64,000 nucleotides of DNA, from NCBI GenBank assembly GCA_011911785.1, contig GCA_011911785.1_4084.1. One strand, 5' to 3'. Below the pieces are notes generated by a model. That model did no database searches and was not told where the DNA came from. It saw only the letters and a list, made by a program, of their open reading frames with translations. Source of the stretch: a phage. Position 1 is the first letter of the stretch, and every line of letters begins with the position of its first letter. Made by a program: the position numbers and the translations under genes. Shown here one piece after another: positions 4,038 to 64,000 of this stretch.

Positions 4038-5015
4038 ATGTCCCATCACGGTGTGTATATGTACCCTTATAATCAGGAAGTATCATTGGGCAATTTTAAT
4101 ATGCCATTTAACAATGATAAGTTAACGATTTATCGTGGTGCTAACAATAACGTAACTTTCACAGTACACAATGCTGATGGAAAGTACACTCAATTAAAAA
4201 CTAATGAATATTTAACATTTATGATTTTCGATGCACGTAACAATACGATTTTGTTTGATACTGTATTGGAAAAGATTTTACCAAGTTGGTTAAACGATAG
4301 TGGTCAGGCTAAACCTACTTTGGGTAATAGTAAAAAAGTATATTATGGTTGTATAATTCCTGCTGGTATTATACAAGATACTAGTCCTGGTTCCAAATAC
4401 AGATGGAGTATTACTAAAGTAACTATGGACGGTTCGTTGATTGAACCAACACAGTACTTATATACTGGTTTAAATTATGAAGCATCATCTGAACTAATTA
4501 TCTCCGACAAAGCAGCACCTGTTTTCGTACCAAGCATTGAAGTTTCTGCTGATCAGAATCCATCTTGGAAATCTATCAAGTCTGCGTTCAGAGAACCTAT
4601 TAGTGATGGTTTTAAAGGTGAATTTGATGTTATGTGTACATCGCCTTTGAGAGCACAAATGCAATATGGTTTAGTTGATGGTTTAAGTACTATTGCAATT
4701 TACTGTAATGGTTTTATTGGTAGGATACAGTTACAAGGATGCTTGAGTAATGATGTACCAAGTGATAGTGATAACTATAAGTGGTTTATTATCAAGTTGG
4801 ATGGAAAAGAGTACATCGAGAATGGCATAGATGAAAATGGCGTACCCGTTCCGTTGGAAGGTATACAGGCATTTAATTTTAAAGGTAATTACATGTGGCT
4901 TCGTGTGGTTGTTAGTATTCGTCCAATCTCCAAACCAATCCCATATGATTATGCTGCAATCCGTAAAATCTATAACCCACTCTTAACTGTTCCTAAAATT
5001 TTGATTCGTCGATGA
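4038..5015 (+). CDS. hypothetical protein (325 aa)
   Basis: In-frame ATG at 4038 preceded by GGAAGG; start moved from ORF-track 3843 because the upstream extension is low-complexity. Confidence 0.55.
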   Translation: MSHHGVYMYPYNQEVSLGNFNMPFNNDKLTIYRGANNNVTFTVHNADGKYTQLKTNEYLTFMIFDARNNTILFDTVLEKILPSWLNDSGQAKPTLGNSKKVYYGCIIPAGIIQDTSPGSKYRWSITKVTMDGSLIEPTQYLYTGLNYEASSELIISDKAAPVFVPSIEVSADQNPSWKSIKSAFREPISDGFKGEFDVMCTSPLRAQMQYGLVDGLSTIAIYCNGFIGRIQLQGCLSNDVPSDSDNYKWFIIKLDGKEYIENGIDENGVPVPLEGIQAFNFKGNYMWLRVVVSIRPISKPIPYDYAAIRKIYNPLLTVPKILIRR

Positions 5016-17150: not shown

Positions 17151-22733
<5,583 letters not shown>

Positions 22734-26880: not shown

Positions 26881-26881
<1 letters not shown>

Positions 26882-27735
26882 TGCCATCTAAATCAAAATC
26901 ACAGGCTCGCTTTATGGCGGCAGCAGCACATGATCCAGAATTTGCTAAACGTAATGGTATTTCACAAGATGCTGCGAAAGAGTGGAATCATGCTGATGAA
27001 AAAGCTGGAAATCTTAAAAAAGGGGCGAAGTTGCCCCAACACGTTAAAAAGAAAACAACCGAATCTTCGATGAAAGGTTGGGTTGATATAATTCAAGATG
27101 CAGAAATTGCACAGGACAATCCTGAAATTGATGATACAATGGATGTACACGCAGATGATTGTGAGTGTGAACAGTGTTGTCAAAATAAAGAACATCACTT
27201 CTATGAAAATACTGAGAAGTTGGAAGAAATGCCACAACGCTTTGATAGTTTTCAGGGACAAGACCGTGATGAGTTTGTCGATAAGACAGCAGAAATGACA
27301 GGTAAACATAACATGGTAATCTTTGCTAAACATAACGATTATGATGTTTATCAGAATAAGAACGGAACTGGTTTTATTGCATATGATAAAAGTGGTAAGC
27401 AACTAGCAATTGTCAGTGGACATACTTCAAATGATGCAGTACTAGGTGTTCAGAATGTTTTCGAAATCGCAGCAACTGCATCTAAAACTGGCACAAAAGG
27501 TATCATTTACACTATCTTTATGGATATGGTAAAGCACGGATACGCTATACTTAGTGATAGTTTACACACTGATGATGCAATTAAATTTTGGACTCGACTA
27601 ATTGGTTCACATCAAGTGTACATTGTTGGTGGTGGTGAAGTTTTAGCAAAGGCAACACCAGAAAAAGTTCACAAATATTGGAGTGATGATGAGACAAGCC
27701 CAAGTGCTGAGTTACAATTACTCCTTGTTAAATAA
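26881..27735 (+). CDS. hypothetical protein (284 aa)
   Basis: ORF track; ATGA-type overlap; Cys cluster DDCECEQCC. Confidence 0.55.
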
Positions 27736-27744
27736 GGATACTAT

Positions 27745-28131
27745 ATGAGTATACTTTTAGTTTTTGGGCTATTGGCATTATTTCAAATAAAACATTTTCT
27801 GTGTGATTATATATTCCAAGGCAAATACATGCTTGGTAAATTTAAAGAGCATGGGTGGTTTCTACCATTGACAGCACACGTTGCTGTTCATGTATTAGGA
27901 ACTGCAATAATTATTGCAATTTTTGCTTGTTATATTGGAACAACGTGGAAGGTGTTTTTCATGCTTCTTGCAATTGATGCAGTTGTTCATTTTGTAATGG
28001 ACCGAGTTAAAGTTGTTGGCTCTAAACAACACACACCACAAGATGCTGAATTTTGGTGGTGGTTAGGGTATGATCAAATGATTCATCATTTTACCCATTA
28101 TGTTATCATTTTTGGATTACTTCTTTTGTAA
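27745..28131 (+). CDS. integral membrane protein with conserved His residues (128 aa)
   Basis: ORF track; several hydrophobic helices. Confidence 0.55.
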   Translation: MSILLVFGLLALFQIKHFLCDYIFQGKYMLGKFKEHGWFLPLTAHVAVHVLGTAIIIAIFACYIGTTWKVFFMLLAIDAVVHFVMDRVKVVGSKQHTPQDAEFWWWLGYDQMIHHFTHYVIIFGLLLL

Positions 28132-28167
28132 TTATATTCGGGGGGCTTTATGCTCTCCGAATTCTTT

Positions 28168-28202
28168 TTGAGACAAATAAACTTTTCGTGATACAATATC
28201 AC
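28168..28202 (+). promoter_or_regulatory. sigma70-like promoter with palindromic -10 region
   Basis: TTGAGA at 28168-73, TACAAT at 28192-97 embedded in palindrome GTGATA-CAA-TATCAC (28188-28202). Confidence 0.45.
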
Positions 28203-28231
28203 AAGACACAGAGACACTAAAAGGAATTAAA

Positions 28232-30196
28232 ATGGCTAAGAAAGAAAGTGCTGTTCTACAAGAACATGACGTTCAACGTCTAAACGATTATCAACATGCT
28301 CGTCTACGTACTGAGATGTATCTTGGTTCTCGTTCTATTCACGAAAGTCAAGTACTGATTTTTGGTGAAAATGATTATGCTGTAAAAAATATGGAATGGG
28401 TTCCTGCAATTCTTACTGCAACTCGTGAAATTATTGATAACAGTCTTGATGAATTCAAAAAAGCTGGTACGAAAGAACCAGTACTGAAAGTTGATTTCAA
28501 TGAAGAAGACCTTTCCTTCGAAATCAGTGATAATGGTCGTGGTATTCCGATTGATTATGTCCCAGAGTATGAGAAAAACCTCTGTACGATGGTAATGACT
28601 GAAACTAAAACTGGTCGTAACTTTGATGATTCTAAGCGTGATGAAACAATCGGTCAAAACGGTCTAGGTGGTTCTGTGGCTATGATTGTTAGCTCTAAAG
28701 CAGAACTTGAAATTCACCGAACCGGACGTCCATATAAAACGCAATCCAGTAATGACGGTTATGATGGTATGTACAAATATACACAGAAGTTTGAAGAAGG
28801 TACAATTATGTTCCCTGAACTTCATGTACATGAACCAACTATTCGAAAAGTACAATCCGATAAAACTGGTACAACTATTCGCTTTACCCTAAGTAAAGAA
28901 GTATTTCCTAATCGCAAGCTACCAACTGAATTACTTTATAGTATTCTAAAAGAAATGGCAGCAGCGAACCCAACATACAAAATCTTCTTGAATGGTAAAC
29001 GTATTGCAATTAAAGGAAGCACAGAAAAGGCACTCTTTAATGCTTCAAAACTAATGTCATTGAATGTTAAAGATGAATCATTCAATTTCAATAGTACTTT
29101 TTATATTGTACCTAATGCTGTATCTGGTATGAACACAAACTTCCATATGCATGGTCTTGTGAATAATGCTCCAGCATTTGATGGTGGTACACATCTAGAT
29201 ACCTTCAAGAAATTCTTCTCTTTAGGGGTAGGAACTGCATTAGAGAAAGAAGCGAAGAAGCGTAAGATGAAACCAAACCGTTCTGATATTGAAGAAGGTT
29301 TGTTGATTTACAATGTAACTACAATGAAAGCACCATCATTCAACTCACAGATTAAATCTAAGTTGACTAATGAAAATGTAATTCGTCCTATTCAGCAAGC
29401 TATGAGTGCTGACTGGTTTGATGAATTGGTCAAGAAAAATAAAGAATGGGTTGATGAGATTTTTGAACGTTGTGCTGCCCGTACTAATAAGAAAGACGCA
29501 GAAGAAGACCGTCGCCTTGCCAAGAAACTTTTGAAAGGTAAAGTTGCAAAACTACTTGATAGTACTGGAACTGACCGTTCACAATGTATTCTATTGGTTG
29601 CGGAAGGTGACTCTGCTATTTCCAACATGGCAAGTGCTCGTATTCCTAGTATTCATGGTATCCTCCCATTGCGTGGTAAGATTATGAACGTTAGTGGGAA
29701 TGAGAAAACCAAAGAATTAATGGATTCTATGGCATTACATGATATAATGGCAAGCATCAACTTGGTCCCTGGAGTTAAAGCTGAACGTGCTGATTTGAAT
29801 TACGGTAAGCTATATATCTGTGCGGACGAAGATGAGGATGGTAAGAACATTGGTGCACTAGTTTGTAACTTCTTGTACAAATTCTGGCCCGAATTATTCC
29901 AAGATCCTGATAATCCGTTTGTATACGTATTCAAAACTCCATTTATTATCTTGGAGAAAGGTAAGGAATCTAAGTATTTTTATGGTCATAACGTCCATGA
30001 ATATATTCCTGAAGATTGGAAAGGGTGGAAAGCAACTCGTGCGAAAGGTTTAGGAACACTCGAAAAAAGTAACTTCCGCGATGCATTTACGAATAGTGTT
30101 GCAGTAGCAATTACTGATGACGGTCGTCTTGGTGAAACATTAGATTTGATTTTCAACAAGAAACGTGCTGATGATCGTAAAAACTGGATGGAATAA
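28232..30196 (+). CDS. DNA topoisomerase II large subunit (GyrB/ParE-like ATPase plus TOPRIM; T4 gp39/gp60 equivalent, fused)
   Basis: GHKL ATPase motifs ISDNGRGIP and QNGLGGSVA; TOPRIM EGDSA and DEDEDGKNIG; 654 aa. Confidence 0.9.
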   Translation: MAKKESAVLQEHDVQRLNDYQHARLRTEMYLGSRSIHESQVLIFGENDYAVKNMEWVPAILTATREIIDNSLDEFKKAGTKEPVLKVDFNEEDLSFEISDNGRGIPIDYVPEYEKNLCTMVMTETKTGRNFDDSKRDETIGQNGLGGSVAMIVSSKAELEIHRTGRPYKTQSSNDGYDGMYKYTQKFEEGTIMFPELHVHEPTIRKVQSDKTGTTIRFTLSKEVFPNRKLPTELLYSILKEMAAANPTYKIFLNGKRIAIKGSTEKALFNASKLMSLNVKDESFNFNSTFYIVPNAVSGMNTNFHMHGLVNNAPAFDGGTHLDTFKKFFSLGVGTALEKEAKKRKMKPNRSDIEEGLLIYNVTTMKAPSFNSQIKSKLTNENVIRPIQQAMSADWFDELVKKNKEWVDEIFERCAARTNKKDAEEDRRLAKKLLKGKVAKLLDSTGTDRSQCILLVAEGDSAISNMASARIPSIHGILPLRGKIMNVSGNEKTKELMDSMALHDIMASINLVPGVKAERADLNYGKLYICADEDEDGKNIGALVCNFLYKFWPELFQDPDNPFVYVFKTPFIILEKGKESKYFYGHNVHEYIPEDWKGWKATRAKGLGTLEKSNFRDAFTNSVAVAITDDGRLGETLDLIFNKKRADDRKNWME

Positions 30197-30244: not shown

Positions 30245-31657
30245 ATGGCTAAAAGTAAGAAAAACACTAATACAAATGTTGATGAATTAACTCTAACTTT
30301 ACTTGATTATAAAAGTTCAGATTATGTCAATACTACATCATTAGAATACTCAATGTACACACTTGACCGTGCTATCCCAGGGATTGACGGACTCAAGAGT
30401 TCTCAACGTAAAGCAATCTTCACATTATCCAAAATCAGTGGGGAGATTAAAACTGTTTCATGTGCAGGTCGTATGATCAGTGATGGGATTTACGTTCATG
30501 GTGACACATCTGCATCAGGAACATTACAAAACCTAGCTAGTCCAGTTGCTAACAACTACCCACTGATTGGTAAGCGTGGTGGTTTCGGGACACAAGTTAA
30601 CAGTACTCCGGCATCTGCTCGTTATACCTACGTCAAAAAGACAAAAACGACTGAAGCATTAGTTCTACGTGATATGGATATAATTCCAATGAAAGAGAAC
30701 TATGATGGTACAACAATGGAACCAGTACACTTCCTTCCTATCATCCCATTAGCATTGTTTGGTAATGATAGTATGTCAGTAGGATATAAGAGTACAATTC
30801 TACCTCATAAAATTGAAGATGTAATTAAGAACTGTATTCGTGCAATAGAAGGAAAACCACTCAAAGAGATGACACCATATTATGCATCTGTTGGTGCTAG
30901 TGATGTGGTAACTAAACTAGACGAAAACAAATATGAATTTTATGGTAAAGCACAGGTAATTGATGCAAGTACTGTTAAAGTTACAGGGCTTCCACCTAAT
31001 TATAGTATTGAAAAGTTCATTGAAAAACTAATCAAGATGAGTGATGATGGTGATATACGTGATTACGATAATGACAGTACTGATGTTATTGATATCACCA
31101 TTAAACTACCACGTGGTATTTCTCAAAAATGGACAGAGGCAGATGTAATTGAGTATTTTGGATTGAATAAAAAGATGACTCAATTGTTAACTGTTTTGGG
31201 TGAAAATGGTAAAGTTCGCGTATATGACAGTACACTTGACCTTATTAAAGATTTCGTCAATTTCCGTTTCAAATATTATGTGAAACGTTACGAGAAGAAG
31301 CTTGAAGACTGTGCAGCAGAAGTTCGTTATAAAATTCTCATCAAAGAGTGTTTTGATAATGATATGATCGGTAAAGTGAAAGGATTTGCAAACCGTGCTG
31401 AAATGGTTGATTTTGTAACTTCTCTCAATACTGAAATTGAAGCAACAAATGAGAATATCCAAAGTATCGTAAACTTCCCATCATATCGTTGGACTAAAGA
31501 TAATTATGATGCAGTACTAAAAGATATTCAAGATAATCTAGACCTAATGGATAGTTATAATGATTTACTTAACAATCATGATAAAATCTGGAATATCTAT
31601 AAAGAAGAATTACAAGAATTACTAAAAATGGACTTTACACCTAAGTCTGAAGATTAA
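30245..31657 (+). CDS. DNA topoisomerase II medium subunit (GyrA-like breakage-reunion; T4 gp52 equivalent)
   Basis: N-terminal YSMYTLDRAIPGIDGLKSSQRK; catalytic Tyr region SARYTY; 470 aa; directly downstream of the large subunit. Confidence 0.85.
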   Translation: MAKSKKNTNTNVDELTLTLLDYKSSDYVNTTSLEYSMYTLDRAIPGIDGLKSSQRKAIFTLSKISGEIKTVSCAGRMISDGIYVHGDTSASGTLQNLASPVANNYPLIGKRGGFGTQVNSTPASARYTYVKKTKTTEALVLRDMDIIPMKENYDGTTMEPVHFLPIIPLALFGNDSMSVGYKSTILPHKIEDVIKNCIRAIEGKPLKEMTPYYASVGASDVVTKLDENKYEFYGKAQVIDASTVKVTGLPPNYSIEKFIEKLIKMSDDGDIRDYDNDSTDVIDITIKLPRGISQKWTEADVIEYFGLNKKMTQLLTVLGENGKVRVYDSTLDLIKDFVNFRFKYYVKRYEKKLEDCAAEVRYKILIKECFDNDMIGKVKGFANRAEMVDFVTSLNTEIEATNENIQSIVNFPSYRWTKDNYDAVLKDIQDNLDLMDSYNDLLNNHDKIWNIYKEELQELLKMDFTPKSED

Positions 31658-31665
31658 TATATAAG

Positions 31666-31690
31666 GGAAGACCCATTGGGTCTTCCTTCC
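31666..31690 (+). terminator. intrinsic terminator
   Basis: GGAAGACCC-ATT-GGGTCTTCC perfect 9-bp hairpin followed by pyrimidine/T-rich tract. Confidence 0.6.
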
Positions 31691-34448: not shown

Positions 34449-34926
34449 TGTTAAATGTAATTTGAATGCTGTAGTTTATGCTATGAATTGTGGGTCTGAT
34501 ATACAGTACTTACAATTACAAGATATAGATGAACAAGAGCGTTTGAAGTTTAACGATAACTGTAAAAAATTTGGACTAGAGCAACGTATGTTGGATTATA
34601 CAATTGACCATGATAGTAATCATGAGTTATGGCGTTATGATCCAATGTATGACAATATCAATCTAAGAGAATTCTTTTTACAAAAGTGTTCCACACCTGA
34701 AGCAAGACAGCGTGTGGAATACGAAATTGATTTATACGAACAATATAATATGACAAAGCTATTGCGTTGTATGATATGGTTGGTAGATTATATGGAAGAG
34801 CACAACATCTTCTGGGGCTTAGGGCGTGGTAGTTCTGTAGCCTCATATTGTCTGTTTCTGATTGGTTTGCATATGGTTGACTCATTGAAGTATGATCTCG
34901 ATGTGAACGAATTTCTGAAATGGTAA
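34408..34926 (+). CDS. hypothetical protein (about 172 aa; start uncertain)
   Basis: ORF track 34384-34926; in-frame ATGs at 34384 and 34408 both overlap the previous gene. Confidence 0.45.
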   Translation: MKVQGNRYISPNGDVKCNLNAVVYAMNCGSDIQYLQLQDIDEQERLKFNDNCKKFGLEQRMLDYTIDHDSNHELWRYDPMYDNINLREFFLQKCSTPEARQRVEYEIDLYEQYNMTKLLRCMIWLVDYMEEHNIFWGLGRGSSVASYCLFLIGLHMVDSLKYDLDVNEFLKW

Positions 34927-38932: not shown

Positions 38933-39747
38933 GAATTTTAAATATGTTGAAATCTCTACATGAAAGTACTAAATTGGTTCAGGATGAAAAGTATCGTCGC
39001 AGTACTACAAAAGATTTAGCTTGTAGAATGTATATGCGTAGATTTGAGATTTCAAGGATTGGTAAGGGATGGGATGACATTAAACGTGATGATATCGATC
39101 CCGATGCAATCTTTAAAGCATATATGGCACGAAAGGTTTTCATTAATGAAAAAACATTTTATATTGACAGTGATAGAGAACGTGAAGTACAATTCACAAA
39201 AGGATTGTGGAAAATCTGGTGCATTGAGACATTTGGTGAGTTGTTACCTGAACCACCAGTACCAGAGACGTACAAAGAACTAAAGAACATCTTTGATAAT
39301 GAACATATACATATGAATTTTTCATTATATGAGACTGTCAATGAGGCATTGTTCTATGGTGAACTACACGGTCATAATGAATATTTTAGTTCTATGGTAG
39401 AGTTTGATTTGTTTTGTCATTTACCTGGGGTACAAAGCTGGACATCTGATCAGTACAGAGCCAGTAAGGTTGACAAACGTAAATTTTCAGCACAGAGATT
39501 TGTACAAGCAGCAATGGGTATGTATAAACTGGACTATCTGAACTGTCCAGAACCATATAAACATTTTTGGAAAGAAAGAGCACAGAAATGTTTAAACTAT
39601 GCTATCATACGTCTTATGGAAGTTTACATTTTAAAATTTAGGAATGCAACGGTGTATGATATGCCGGAGCCACCTAAAGATGAGAAGTACCCACCAGTTA
39701 AGGGTTTCAACTGGTACAGAGAGAAGAACAACAAAGGGACGTGCTAA
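38929..39747 (+). CDS. hypothetical protein (272 aa)
   Basis: ORF track; ATGA overlap. Confidence 0.5.
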   Translation: MRILNMLKSLHESTKLVQDEKYRRSTTKDLACRMYMRRFEISRIGKGWDDIKRDDIDPDAIFKAYMARKVFINEKTFYIDSDREREVQFTKGLWKIWCIETFGELLPEPPVPETYKELKNIFDNEHIHMNFSLYETVNEALFYGELHGHNEYFSSMVEFDLFCHLPGVQSWTSDQYRASKVDKRKFSAQRFVQAAMGMYKLDYLNCPEPYKHFWKERAQKCLNYAIIRLMEVYILKFRNATVYDMPEPPKDEKYPPVKGFNWYREKNNKGTC

Positions 39748-39762
39748 GGTGCGTCCTTTTTT
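39734..39762 (+). terminator. intrinsic terminator overlapping stop codon
   Basis: AAGGGACG-(10 nt)-CGTCCTTT stem followed by TTTTTTC. Confidence 0.5.
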
Positions 39763-39772
39763 CATTTAGGTG

Positions 39773-39801
39773 TTGACAATACTAATCAAGTTAGATAGAA
39801 T
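39773..39801 (+). promoter_or_regulatory. sigma70-like promoter (TTGACA-N17-TAGAAT)
   Basis: TTGACA at 39773-78 and TAGAAT at 39796-801. Confidence 0.55.
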
Positions 39802-40968: not shown

Positions 40969-41016
40969 TTGACATAACTGTGTGTTGCTCGTATAATGTT
41001 TATCACAGAGCAACAC
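40969..41016 (+). promoter_or_regulatory. consensus sigma70 promoter with flanking inverted repeat
   Basis: TTGACA at 40969-74, TATAAT at 40992-97; 9-bp inverted repeat GTGTTGCTC (40982-90) / GAGCAACAC (41008-16) brackets the -10. Confidence 0.6.
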
Positions 41017-42175: not shown

Positions 42176-42212
42176 TTGACATATAAATGTGCCCATTGTA
42201 TAATGGGCACAT
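42176..42212 (+). promoter_or_regulatory. consensus sigma70 promoter with -10 at centre of a palindrome
   Basis: TTGACA at 42176-81, TATAAT at 42199-204; palindrome ATGTGCCCATT-GTAT-AATGGGCACAT (42187-42212). Confidence 0.6.
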
Positions 42213-42240
42213 ATTTTATTAATTATCTAAGGATAATATG

Positions 42241-44604: not shown

Positions 44605-44633
44605 GGGGAGTACATTATTGTACTCCCTTTTTA
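44605..44633 (+). terminator. intrinsic terminator
   Basis: GGGAGTACA-TTAT-TGTACTCCC hairpin followed by TTTTT. Confidence 0.7.
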
Positions 44634-44647
44634 ATAGGATATAAACT

Positions 44648-45229
44648 ATGTTTTATAATGAAACTCTTAAGTTGTTCGAGCGTATAGCAGAAATCAAAAA
44701 GCGTGCATATGATAATATAATTCTTCCTTATAGTTTTGAATCAGATACTATAATTTTTAAAATGAAACATCATGCTCGTCATTATGAATTTATTTTAGGG
44801 ATAAAAGAACCTAAAATTGAATCCAATGTTCCAAATATATCATCATCTATCGCAGTTCCAAGCGGTGTAAATATTGCCCACGGTCATCCAATGACAATTG
44901 CGGCAACTTCATCCAATACGATTATTGAGCGTTATATTAAAGTTTGTACAACAACAGCTATGCAAAATATCATATCAGTTGAGTGGAGTGAACTACCAAG
45001 TAACTTCATTTACTTCACCAATAGTAATGGTACAACATCTGAGAAAGAATCTATGGGTAATAAGATTATGTCAGCTATGATTCTACATGAAAAAACGCTT
45101 ATCAATGGTGAAATATATTCATTAGAAGACAATCCAGATGCATTTATTAAAGACATTGAGGGTTCCAATAAATTTAGTATTTTAGAAGTATTAAATCTTG
45201 AAAAGGATTATAAACATGCAATACGATAA
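44648..45229 (+). CDS. hypothetical protein (193 aa)
   Basis: ORF track; AGGA RBS. Confidence 0.5.
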   Translation: MFYNETLKLFERIAEIKKRAYDNIILPYSFESDTIIFKMKHHARHYEFILGIKEPKIESNVPNISSSIAVPSGVNIAHGHPMTIAATSSNTIIERYIKVCTTTAMQNIISVEWSELPSNFIYFTNSNGTTSEKESMGNKIMSAMILHEKTLINGEIYSLEDNPDAFIKDIEGSNKFSILEVLNLEKDYKHAIR

Positions 45230-47362: not shown

Positions 47363-47391
47363 TTGACAATATTCGTCATTCCAACTATAAT
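47363..47391 (+). promoter_or_regulatory. consensus sigma70 promoter (TTGACA-N17-TATAAT)
   Basis: TTGACA at 47363-68, TATAAT at 47386-91. Confidence 0.55.
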
Positions 47392-56302: not shown

Positions 56303-56473
56303 ATGAGTCTGAGTGAATCCTGGAAACAGTTCAAAGAAGAGATTGGTTATCGTGGTGTATCGATTGAACCAATCAATCGTACTGAAAGCATTAAGGCCAG
56401 TACTAACGGTACTACCTATGACCGATATGACCCACGATACGGGTTACATGAAGAAGTCAAAAAAGAAGATTGA
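56303..56473 (+). CDS. small ORF (56 aa)
   Basis: AAGGGG RBS upstream of ATG; ends just before terminator 56482-56511; below ORF-track cutoff. Confidence 0.45.
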   Translation: MSLSESWKQFKEEIGYRGVSIEPINRTESIKASTNGTTYDRYDPRYGLHEEVKKED

Positions 56474-56481
56474 CAATATAT

Positions 56482-56511
56482 CGAGAGTGTGTGATAATAC
56501 TCTCGTCTTTT
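56482..56511 (+). terminator. intrinsic terminator
   Basis: CGAGAGT-(10 nt)-ACTCTCG hairpin followed by TCTTTT. Confidence 0.6.
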
Positions 56512-56536
56512 AATTAAACAAAAAGGTAAAATAAAA

Positions 56537-63464: not shown

Positions 63465-64000
<536 letters not shown>

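Follow-up and report, generated by a model that had tools for sequence, protein, structure and literature searches.

Based on its sequence anatomy, its conservation and a published precedent, we identify the site upstream of the topoisomerase II genes in a 64,000-nt stretch of phage DNA (hereafter the window) as a predicted class-2, or "divergent RpoD-like", promoter, whereas the perfect palindrome that spans its -10 seems to have arisen by chance and not as a regulatory device. We consider it very probable that this is an ordinary promoter of its class serving an insulated two-gene topoisomerase II unit, and that the palindrome has no function of its own. The anatomy of the promoter and of the terminator preceding it, the enrichment of the promoter motif, its conservation across genera and the class assignment are documented below.

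Genomic context of the site

With a 2.5-kb query around the site, Escherichia phage A4 (a 355-kb Asteriusvirus) matched at 98.6% identity and some 50 further RaK2-like jumbo phages at lower identity, and the 231 nt around the topoisomerase promoter are 100% identical to A4; judged by its sequence, the window belongs to an Asteriusvirus jumbo phage. In the A4 annotation the site falls between a DUF3307 gene, whose stop is at 28131, and the gene for the topoisomerase II large subunit, which is followed by the medium-subunit gene (Table 1), with genes annotated as "structural protein" on both sides and on the same strand. Before position 26881 (window 1-26880) gene coordinates are offset from those of A4 by about 198 nt, and beyond it by 0, and one or more indels relative to A4 must therefore lie somewhere before that point. 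In Erwinia phage Hallingskeid (L008, position 373) the annotated topoisomerase gene start falls immediately 3' of the -10 box; the deposited start is probably too early, because the conserved ribosome-binding site and ATGGCA start lie about 36 nt downstream of it.

Table 1. Features of the topoisomerase II unit and of the dyads compared with the one at its promoter
Feature	Position	Strand	Basis or remarks
Intrinsic terminator hairpin of the upstream DUF3307 and structural-gene transcript (ATTCGGGGGGC-TTTAT-GCTCTCCGAAT)	28136..28162	+	terminator scan; 11 pairs, 6 G-C
TGAGAC, -35-position element of the predicted class-2 promoter	28169..28174	+	motif enrichment; T and G invariant in 15 phages; CBB consensus TGAAAC(G)
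Extended -10: TG (28189-90), A, TACAAT (28192-97)	28189..28197	+	conserved in 15 phages; class consensus (A/G)TGNTATAAT in CBB Table S6
Perfect 6-3-6 palindrome GTGATA (28188-93)-CAA-TATCAC (28197-28202)	28188..28202	no strand	judged incidental; two G-C pairs; followed by AAGACAC
Predicted transcription start, A28204 ±1	28203..28205	+	7 nt past the -10, from standard sigma70-family promoter geometry
Purine-rich conserved 5' UTR	28206..28231	+	second GAGACA 28211-28216; Shine-Dalgarno AAGGA 28221-28225
Topoisomerase II large subunit gene (GyrB-like, T4 gp39/60 type)	28232..30196	+	Pfam DNA_gyraseB, HATPase_c, Toprim, TOPRIM_C; A4_81 annotation
Topoisomerase II medium subunit gene (GyrA-like, T4 gp52 type)	30245..31657	+	Pfam DNA_topoisoIV, 3e-63; A4_82 annotation
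Terminator-like hairpin at the end of the two-gene unit	31664..31688	+; called on - too	terminator scan; 11 pairs, 6 G-C
Dyad at the 40969 promoter	40969		9-bp arms, 17-nt loop; -14.3 kcal/mol (RNA); followed by TATCTTAAATT, no clear T-run
Dyad at the 42176 promoter	42176		11 pairs, 4-nt loop; -16.8 kcal/mol (RNA); followed by ATTTTATT

Anatomy of the promoter region

The sequence from 28132 onward reads TTATATTCGGGGGGCTTTATGCTCTCCGAATTCTTTTTGAGACAAATAAACTTTTCGTGATACAATATCACAAGACACAGAGACACTAAAAGGAATTAAAATG. Its first element is the terminator hairpin of the upstream transcript, with an RNA fold of -17.1 kcal/mol (z = -4.9) and a T-tract (28163-28169) that extends into the -35-like element. All orthologs in the 15-phage comparison described below have a hairpin of differing sequence followed by a T-run at the terminator position, and the records of phages G17 and UE-S1 carry an annotated terminator at the counterpart of this hairpin.

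The first-pass annotation of this DNA had called a topoisomerase promoter here with TTGAGA (28168-28173) as its -35, which leaves an 18-nt spacer to the -10, and a consensus scan lists TTGAGA-18-TACAAT with an upstream TG at 10/12. In our reading the -35-position element is TGAGAC, which is separated from the TGA of the extended -10 by the 14-nt spacer AAATAAACTTTTCG. The letters on which the earlier call drew, namely the -35-like element, the TG, TACAAT and the perfect dyad, are all present in the sequence. The left arm of the palindrome is made up of the extended -10 and the first two bases of the -10 box, and its right arm of the last base of that box and the discriminator ATCAC.

The dyad ends 30 nt upstream of the ATG of the large-subunit gene. 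Within the intervening leader A91, A93, A95, A98, A100, G102 and A104 of the alignment are invariant among the 15 phages. We also observed that GAGACA occurs twice in the region, in the -35-position motif and as part of AGAGACA in the leader; both copies read GAAACA in Eneladusvirus and Mimasvirus, the pattern is broken in XaC1, JNE01, EJP2 and RaK2, and a similar AGAGACA follows the -10 of a class-2 promoter at L135:31906. The leader copy could be a second site for a hexamer-recognising factor or could simply result from the purine-rich composition of the leader.

A published promoter class conserved across RaK2-like phages

The motif TGRRAC-N14-TGN-TAYAAT has four matches in the window, all on the + strand, against 0.03 expected, and three of the four (at 5013, 11414 and 28169) are followed closely by an annotated gene start; looser variants are found at 34916 and 63738, and the 50-kb part of A4 preceding the window contains four more class members. 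Members in the window precede primase, exonuclease and topoisomerase genes, and those in the adjacent part of A4 precede the genes for a gp55-like late sigma and ssb (with RecA and UvsY), and a gene upstream of the DNA polymerase. As a separate observation, in the segment 63738-63866 the looser variant, a class-2-like TTGGAC-N14-TGA-TATAAT with an extended -10, ends 11 nt short of the gene for tRNA-Ser(TGA) (63777-63866).

We aligned the topoisomerase upstream region of the window with those of 14 other phages, giving 15 RaK2-like phages in all, the 14 being drawn from the Asteriusvirus clades, EJP2, Erwinia phage Hallingskeid, Eneladusvirus, Mimasvirus, Xanthomonas phage XaC1 and RaK2. The same layout is kept throughout, comprising a lineage-specific hairpin, a T-run, TGA(G/A)AC, an A-rich spacer, (A/G)TGNTA(Y)AAT, a purine-rich leader, AAGGA and the ATG, and it spans Asteriusvirus, Eneladusvirus, Mimasvirus and Alcyoneusvirus as well as a Xanthomonas phage. 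No phage in this alignment departs from the TG of the hexamer or from the -10 box at positions 1, 2, 4 and 6, and conservation is at least 90% at the T of the extended -10 TG.

A precedent for this promoter comes from Pectobacterium phage CBB, in which 18 "divergent RpoD-like promoters" with TGAAACG replacing TTGACA were predicted, concentrated upstream of DNA-synthesis genes, the same motif being present in Cronobacter phage GAP32 (Buttimer et al. 2017, PMC5259590). One of them, Porf_324 (TGAAACAAAGAAACAAATTATGCTATAAT; Table S6 of PMC5259590), is upstream of the gyrB-like gene CBB_324, and the window site aligns with it base for base. Beyond this orthology to a listed member, the window site has a hexamer of the form TG(A/G)(A/G)AC at the -35 position, a 14-nt spacer followed by (A/G)TGN and a near-consensus TATAAT in the same 29-nt frame as all 18 CBB entries, and DNA-metabolism genes downstream; we place it in the class on these features. 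The first-pass proposal of a promoter directly upstream of the topoisomerase II unit is thereby upheld, its elements being invariant or nearly so in the 15 phages and its CBB ortholog having been predicted earlier.

A scan of IMG/VR for TTGAGAC-N14-TGNTAYAAT yielded 113 scattered single matches on unrelated contigs, as expected of chance, and no further members of the class, and an Rfam search of 27500-28800 gave only a sub-threshold snoRNA match. Our search of the literature for transcript maps or promoters of Asteriusvirus and other RaK2-like phages returned the computational CBB analysis only, and no transcript 5'-end data, and a further search on promoters that overlap terminators brought up no relevant work.

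The palindrome as a probable by-product of the promoter consensus

The left arm GTGATA coincides with the extended -10 consensus of the class, and GTGATATAAT and ATGATATAAT recur in the CBB list and at 5013, 34916 and 63738; only the discriminator ATCAC has to match by luck to complete the palindrome. With the core held fixed and the flanks randomised at window composition, the probability of a perfect dyad of at least 6 bp overlapping the -10 is 0.14, or 0.06 if only loops of 3-8 nt are admitted, and an energy-based P for the window dyad is 0.044. Dyads of this size are in any event plentiful: the window contains 34 perfect 6-3-6 palindromes where shuffles give 26.0±4.3, and one of the 34 lies within the gene only 64 nt downstream; for 6-bp dyads with a loop of 3-8 nt the window count is 214, against 150. 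A single such dyad among roughly ten class members is what chance predicts. In the others the dyad over the -10 reaches at most 4-5 bp, and no other member, whether from the window or from 50 kb of neighboring A4 sequence, has a comparable one.

The palindrome is likewise weak as a structure and is confined to one lineage. Its predicted folding energy is -4.7 kcal/mol for an RNA hairpin and -3.1 for a DNA hairpin, whereas the terminator, 26 nt upstream, reaches -17.1. Its right arm TATCAC is found in A4 only among the phages compared, and on the 15-phage alignment 65.9% of the dyad pairs are standard against 66.0% in shuffles, with a slid register scoring higher. Hence the comparative alignment, which the first-pass annotation had itself proposed as a check, naming lack of conservation as grounds for rejection, separates the two parts of the element: the promoter is conserved and the palindrome is not. 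The decamer TATCACAAGA, which covers the topoisomerase discriminator (28197-28206), also occurs at 18791-18800 in the intergenic space between convergent genes, a sharing that is probably due to chance. We suggest that the palindrome be dropped from the list of candidate regulatory elements.

Alternative roles for the dyad

One alternative is that structure and not sequence is selected, such that the -10 is held in a dyad prone to form a DNA hairpin or cruciform, or in a read-through RNA hairpin, with the arms turning over between lineages. This idea draws on three E. coli Asteriusvirus lineages that have different dyads on the same -10. Against the 6-bp dyad of A4, phages G17, 121Q and their relatives carry a longer, 9-bp dyad, AAAACATTG-GTGATA-CAATGTTTT (-6.5 kcal/mol as DNA), for which P is about 0.001-0.005 under a null in which the spacer and downstream bases are shuffled around a fixed core, and JNE01 has a 6-bp dyad, CGTCAA/TTGATG, with one G·T pair. 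The P of 0.044 for the window dyad and a both-sided change from A-T to T·G in UE-S1 point in the same direction, and the differences between A4 and G17 are concentrated in the two dyad-forming flanks; these could reflect some selection for symmetry, though they are also expected if the spacer and the discriminator are simply unconstrained. However, the pair count over the whole 15-phage alignment cannot be told from that of controls, at 57.5% against 54.4%, a value reached in 52 of 500 shuffles, and a register slid by +3 shows equal covariation. All the non-Asteriusvirus lineages and EJP2 give dyad P values of 0.34-1.0, and a Fisher combination of the independent-lineage P values, computed by hand, comes to about 0.07. 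Further, within the G17-like clade the changes in EC.P1 and phAPEC6 are one-sided and erode the outer pairs of the stem, the hairpins are weak throughout (from -3 to -6.5 kcal/mol), a transcript from the promoter itself would begin past the dyad, and a strong terminator already stands 26 nt upstream. On balance we regard selection for structure at this site as unsupported and very unlikely. The narrower proposition that the topoisomerase -10 of E. coli Asteriusvirus has been selected to lie inside a dyad with lineage-replaced arms (GTGATA/TATCAC in A4, AAAACATTG/CAATGTTTT in the G17-like phages and CGTCAA/TTGATG in JNE01) earns little credence from us; were it true, it would imply structure-specific rather than sequence-specific control, either of promoter opening or of a structure-binding protein.

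The dyad might otherwise be an operator, with a dimeric host or phage protein binding GTGATA-N3-TATCAC over the -10 to repress or time topoisomerase transcription. A perfect 15-bp palindrome centred on the -10 occupies the classic position for a repressor, and these phages do encode small HTH regulators, such as CBB_511. Nevertheless, the inverted repeat is not conserved along with the promoter, in that its right arm is missing in every other phage compared despite conservation of the promoter and the gene, and its left arm is accounted for by the promoter consensus. Nor does it recur at co-regulated promoters: GTGATANNNTATCAC with up to 2 mismatches has 6 matches in the 64 kb against 5.06 expected, none at another class promoter, so that there is neither a second or near copy above chance nor an operator family, and the arms at 40969 and 42176 are unrelated to it. 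In view of this we think it distinctly unlikely that the palindrome is an operator. Sites for three familiar host regulators were also considered and rejected. CRP recognizes TGTGA/TCACA half-sites with a 6-nt spacing; the arms resemble these half-sites, but with 7-nt spacing and a mismatch. The palindrome is two bases shorter than the usual 7-1-7 Fur box, and it lacks the CTGT/ACAG of a LexA site.

We attach next to no weight to a third reading, which takes the dyad for a terminator hairpin that overlaps the promoter in the manner of 40969 and 42176: a terminator scan does call the dyads over the -10 at 42176 (42187-42212) and on a third promoter at 56470 (56482-56505), and the arrangement at 42176 is conserved, its counterpart being annotated as an ARNOLD terminator in the G17 record, yet the topoisomerase dyad has a stem of six mostly A-T pairs followed by AAGACAC instead of a stable G+C stem with a T-run, shows no compensatory maintenance of the stem, and is absent from the terminator scan, the real terminator being the separate hairpin upstream.

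Promoters nested in hairpins elsewhere in the window

The first-pass annotation had considered the topoisomerase site to share its architecture with the promoters at 40969 and 42176, and had argued from the three occurrences for a shared mechanism acting through dyad symmetry. Our results do not sustain either point. The promoters at 40969 and 42176 both match TTGACA-N17-TATAAT at 12/12 and fall in a different class. What all these sites, including 56470, have in common with the topoisomerase promoter is a dyad touching the -10; the topoisomerase dyad lacks the stable hairpin of those sites, the conservation seen at 40969 and 42176 and the T-run of 42176 and 56470. The dyads at 28188, 40969 and 42176 differ from one another in arm sequence, in loop length (3, 17 and 4 nt) and in their register with respect to the -10, and therefore no single sequence-specific factor could serve all three.

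The segments 42176-42222, 40969-41016 and 56470-56512 each hold a TTGACA-N17-TATAAT/GATAAT promoter whose -10 lies inside a strong hairpin (-12.8 to -16.8 kcal/mol, 9-11 pairs), and a T-run follows the hairpin at 42176 and 56470. In all of the six relatives with a counterpart of the 42176 site, a hairpin is formed around TATAAT and followed by a T-run, the 75-nt segment folding at -16.7 to -23.1 kcal/mol; the stems of these counterparts are of wholly different sequence (GAGTGCGTTTT...AAAACGCACTC), with compensatory changes. The hairpin at 40969 is likewise kept in six relatives, its stem covarying from T-A to C-G. At the nested-hairpin sites the genes are only 65-90 nt apart, and the scan called no separate terminator there. 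As far as can be read from sequence and folding, 40969, 42176 and 56470 are promoters nested in hairpins, conserved at 40969 and 42176 and terminator-like at 42176 and 56470. Transcripts begun at such promoters would be without the left arm of the hairpin and would therefore not self-terminate. This is a different and more interesting arrangement, and it should be kept apart from that at the topoisomerase site. The terminator hairpin with a T-run fused to the -35 that is seen at the topoisomerase promoter occurs also at 39733-39801 (39733/39773) and 44605-44659 (44605/44631).

More generally, the window has 49 sigma70-like matches scoring 10/12 or better on its + strand and 16 on its - strand, and many matches of 11-12/12 lie inside coding sequence, including those at 47363 (12/12), 42773, 48168, 52499 and 54661. 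The latter could be internal promoters of the short-gene region at 44-58 kb or could stem from a codon or composition effect.

Proposed function of the topoisomerase promoter

Returning to the reading that we favor, an ordinary class-2 promoter with an incidental palindrome, we propose that the upstream terminator and its T-tract halt transcription arriving on the same strand from the virion-protein genes, and that the T-tract leads straight into the promoter, with its TGAGAC, the A/T-rich spacer of 14 nt and the extended -10 TG-A-TACAAT. Transcription starting near A28204 would produce a 28-nt unstructured purine-rich leader ending with AAGGA and the ATG at 28232, and the unit would be closed by the hairpin downstream of the medium-subunit gene. 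As promoters of this class precede replication and recombination genes, the promoter most likely times expression of the unit with DNA metabolism. It might be read by the host E-sigma70 via the extended -10 or by RNA polymerase carrying a phage-encoded sigma70-family factor. Homologs of the CBB sigma factor, a member of the sigma70 family, are found across the RaK2-like phages, including Asteriusvirus 121Q and G17; in the genomes of these two phages the sigma gene is about 50 kb from the topoisomerase gene, and with this separation it presumably falls outside the window. The palindrome would then amount to a class-consensus left arm joined by five lineage-specific bases of an unconstrained discriminator.

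The significance of these results is small. They provide the topoisomerase II unit of this A4-like jumbo phage with a promoter and a terminator that had not been annotated, and they extend the CBB/GAP32 class to Asteriusvirus, in which the hexamer is TGAGAC or TGGGAC, which should be useful for annotation and for choosing sites at which to map transcription starts.

Comparison with known systems

The hairpin promoters of N4-type phages have a stem of 5-7 bp and a loop of 3 nt and are read by the virion RNA polymerase. Hairpin promoters of the N4-like phage LUZ7 are mentioned in 10.1101/2022.03.18.484859. With its 6-bp stem and 3-nt loop the window dyad falls superficially within this geometry, but unlike the N4-type elements it is a single occurrence, with no family of similar hairpins in the window, and it lies on a sigma70-type promoter before a replication gene and not at a genome end; hence we reject this assignment.

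In T4 middle promoters, which serve DNA-metabolism genes, a MotA box is combined with a sigma70 -10, and the sigma factor is appropriated by MotA/AsiA. The topoisomerase promoter is similar in keeping a host-type -10 while the -35 is replaced by a phage motif, and in its association with DNA-metabolism genes. It differs in that the motif is TGRRAC and not (a/t)(a/t)(a/t)TGCTTtA, and in that the RaK2-like phages have a sigma70-family gene of their own.

E. coli sigma70 promoters with an extended -10 (TGnTATAAT) can dispense with the -35. The topoisomerase promoter resembles these in having TG one base 5' of a near-consensus -10 and a poor match to TTGACA at 17-nt spacing. In contrast to a pure extended -10 promoter, it has a distinct conserved hexamer in the -35 position, and since such a promoter would not need one, the hexamer suggests an additional specificity factor.

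There is a close likeness in layout and setting to Promoter 1 of CBB and GAP32 (-35 TGAAACG, extended -10). The window site has the same 29-nt geometry of hexamer, N14, TGN and TATAAT, the same position after a terminator and upstream of the topoisomerase II large-subunit gene, and the same association with DNA metabolism. The two differ, in a comparison of computational predictions on both sides, in the hexamer, which in Asteriusvirus is TGAGAC or TGGGAC in place of TGAAAC(G), and in the -10, which at the window site is TACAAT.
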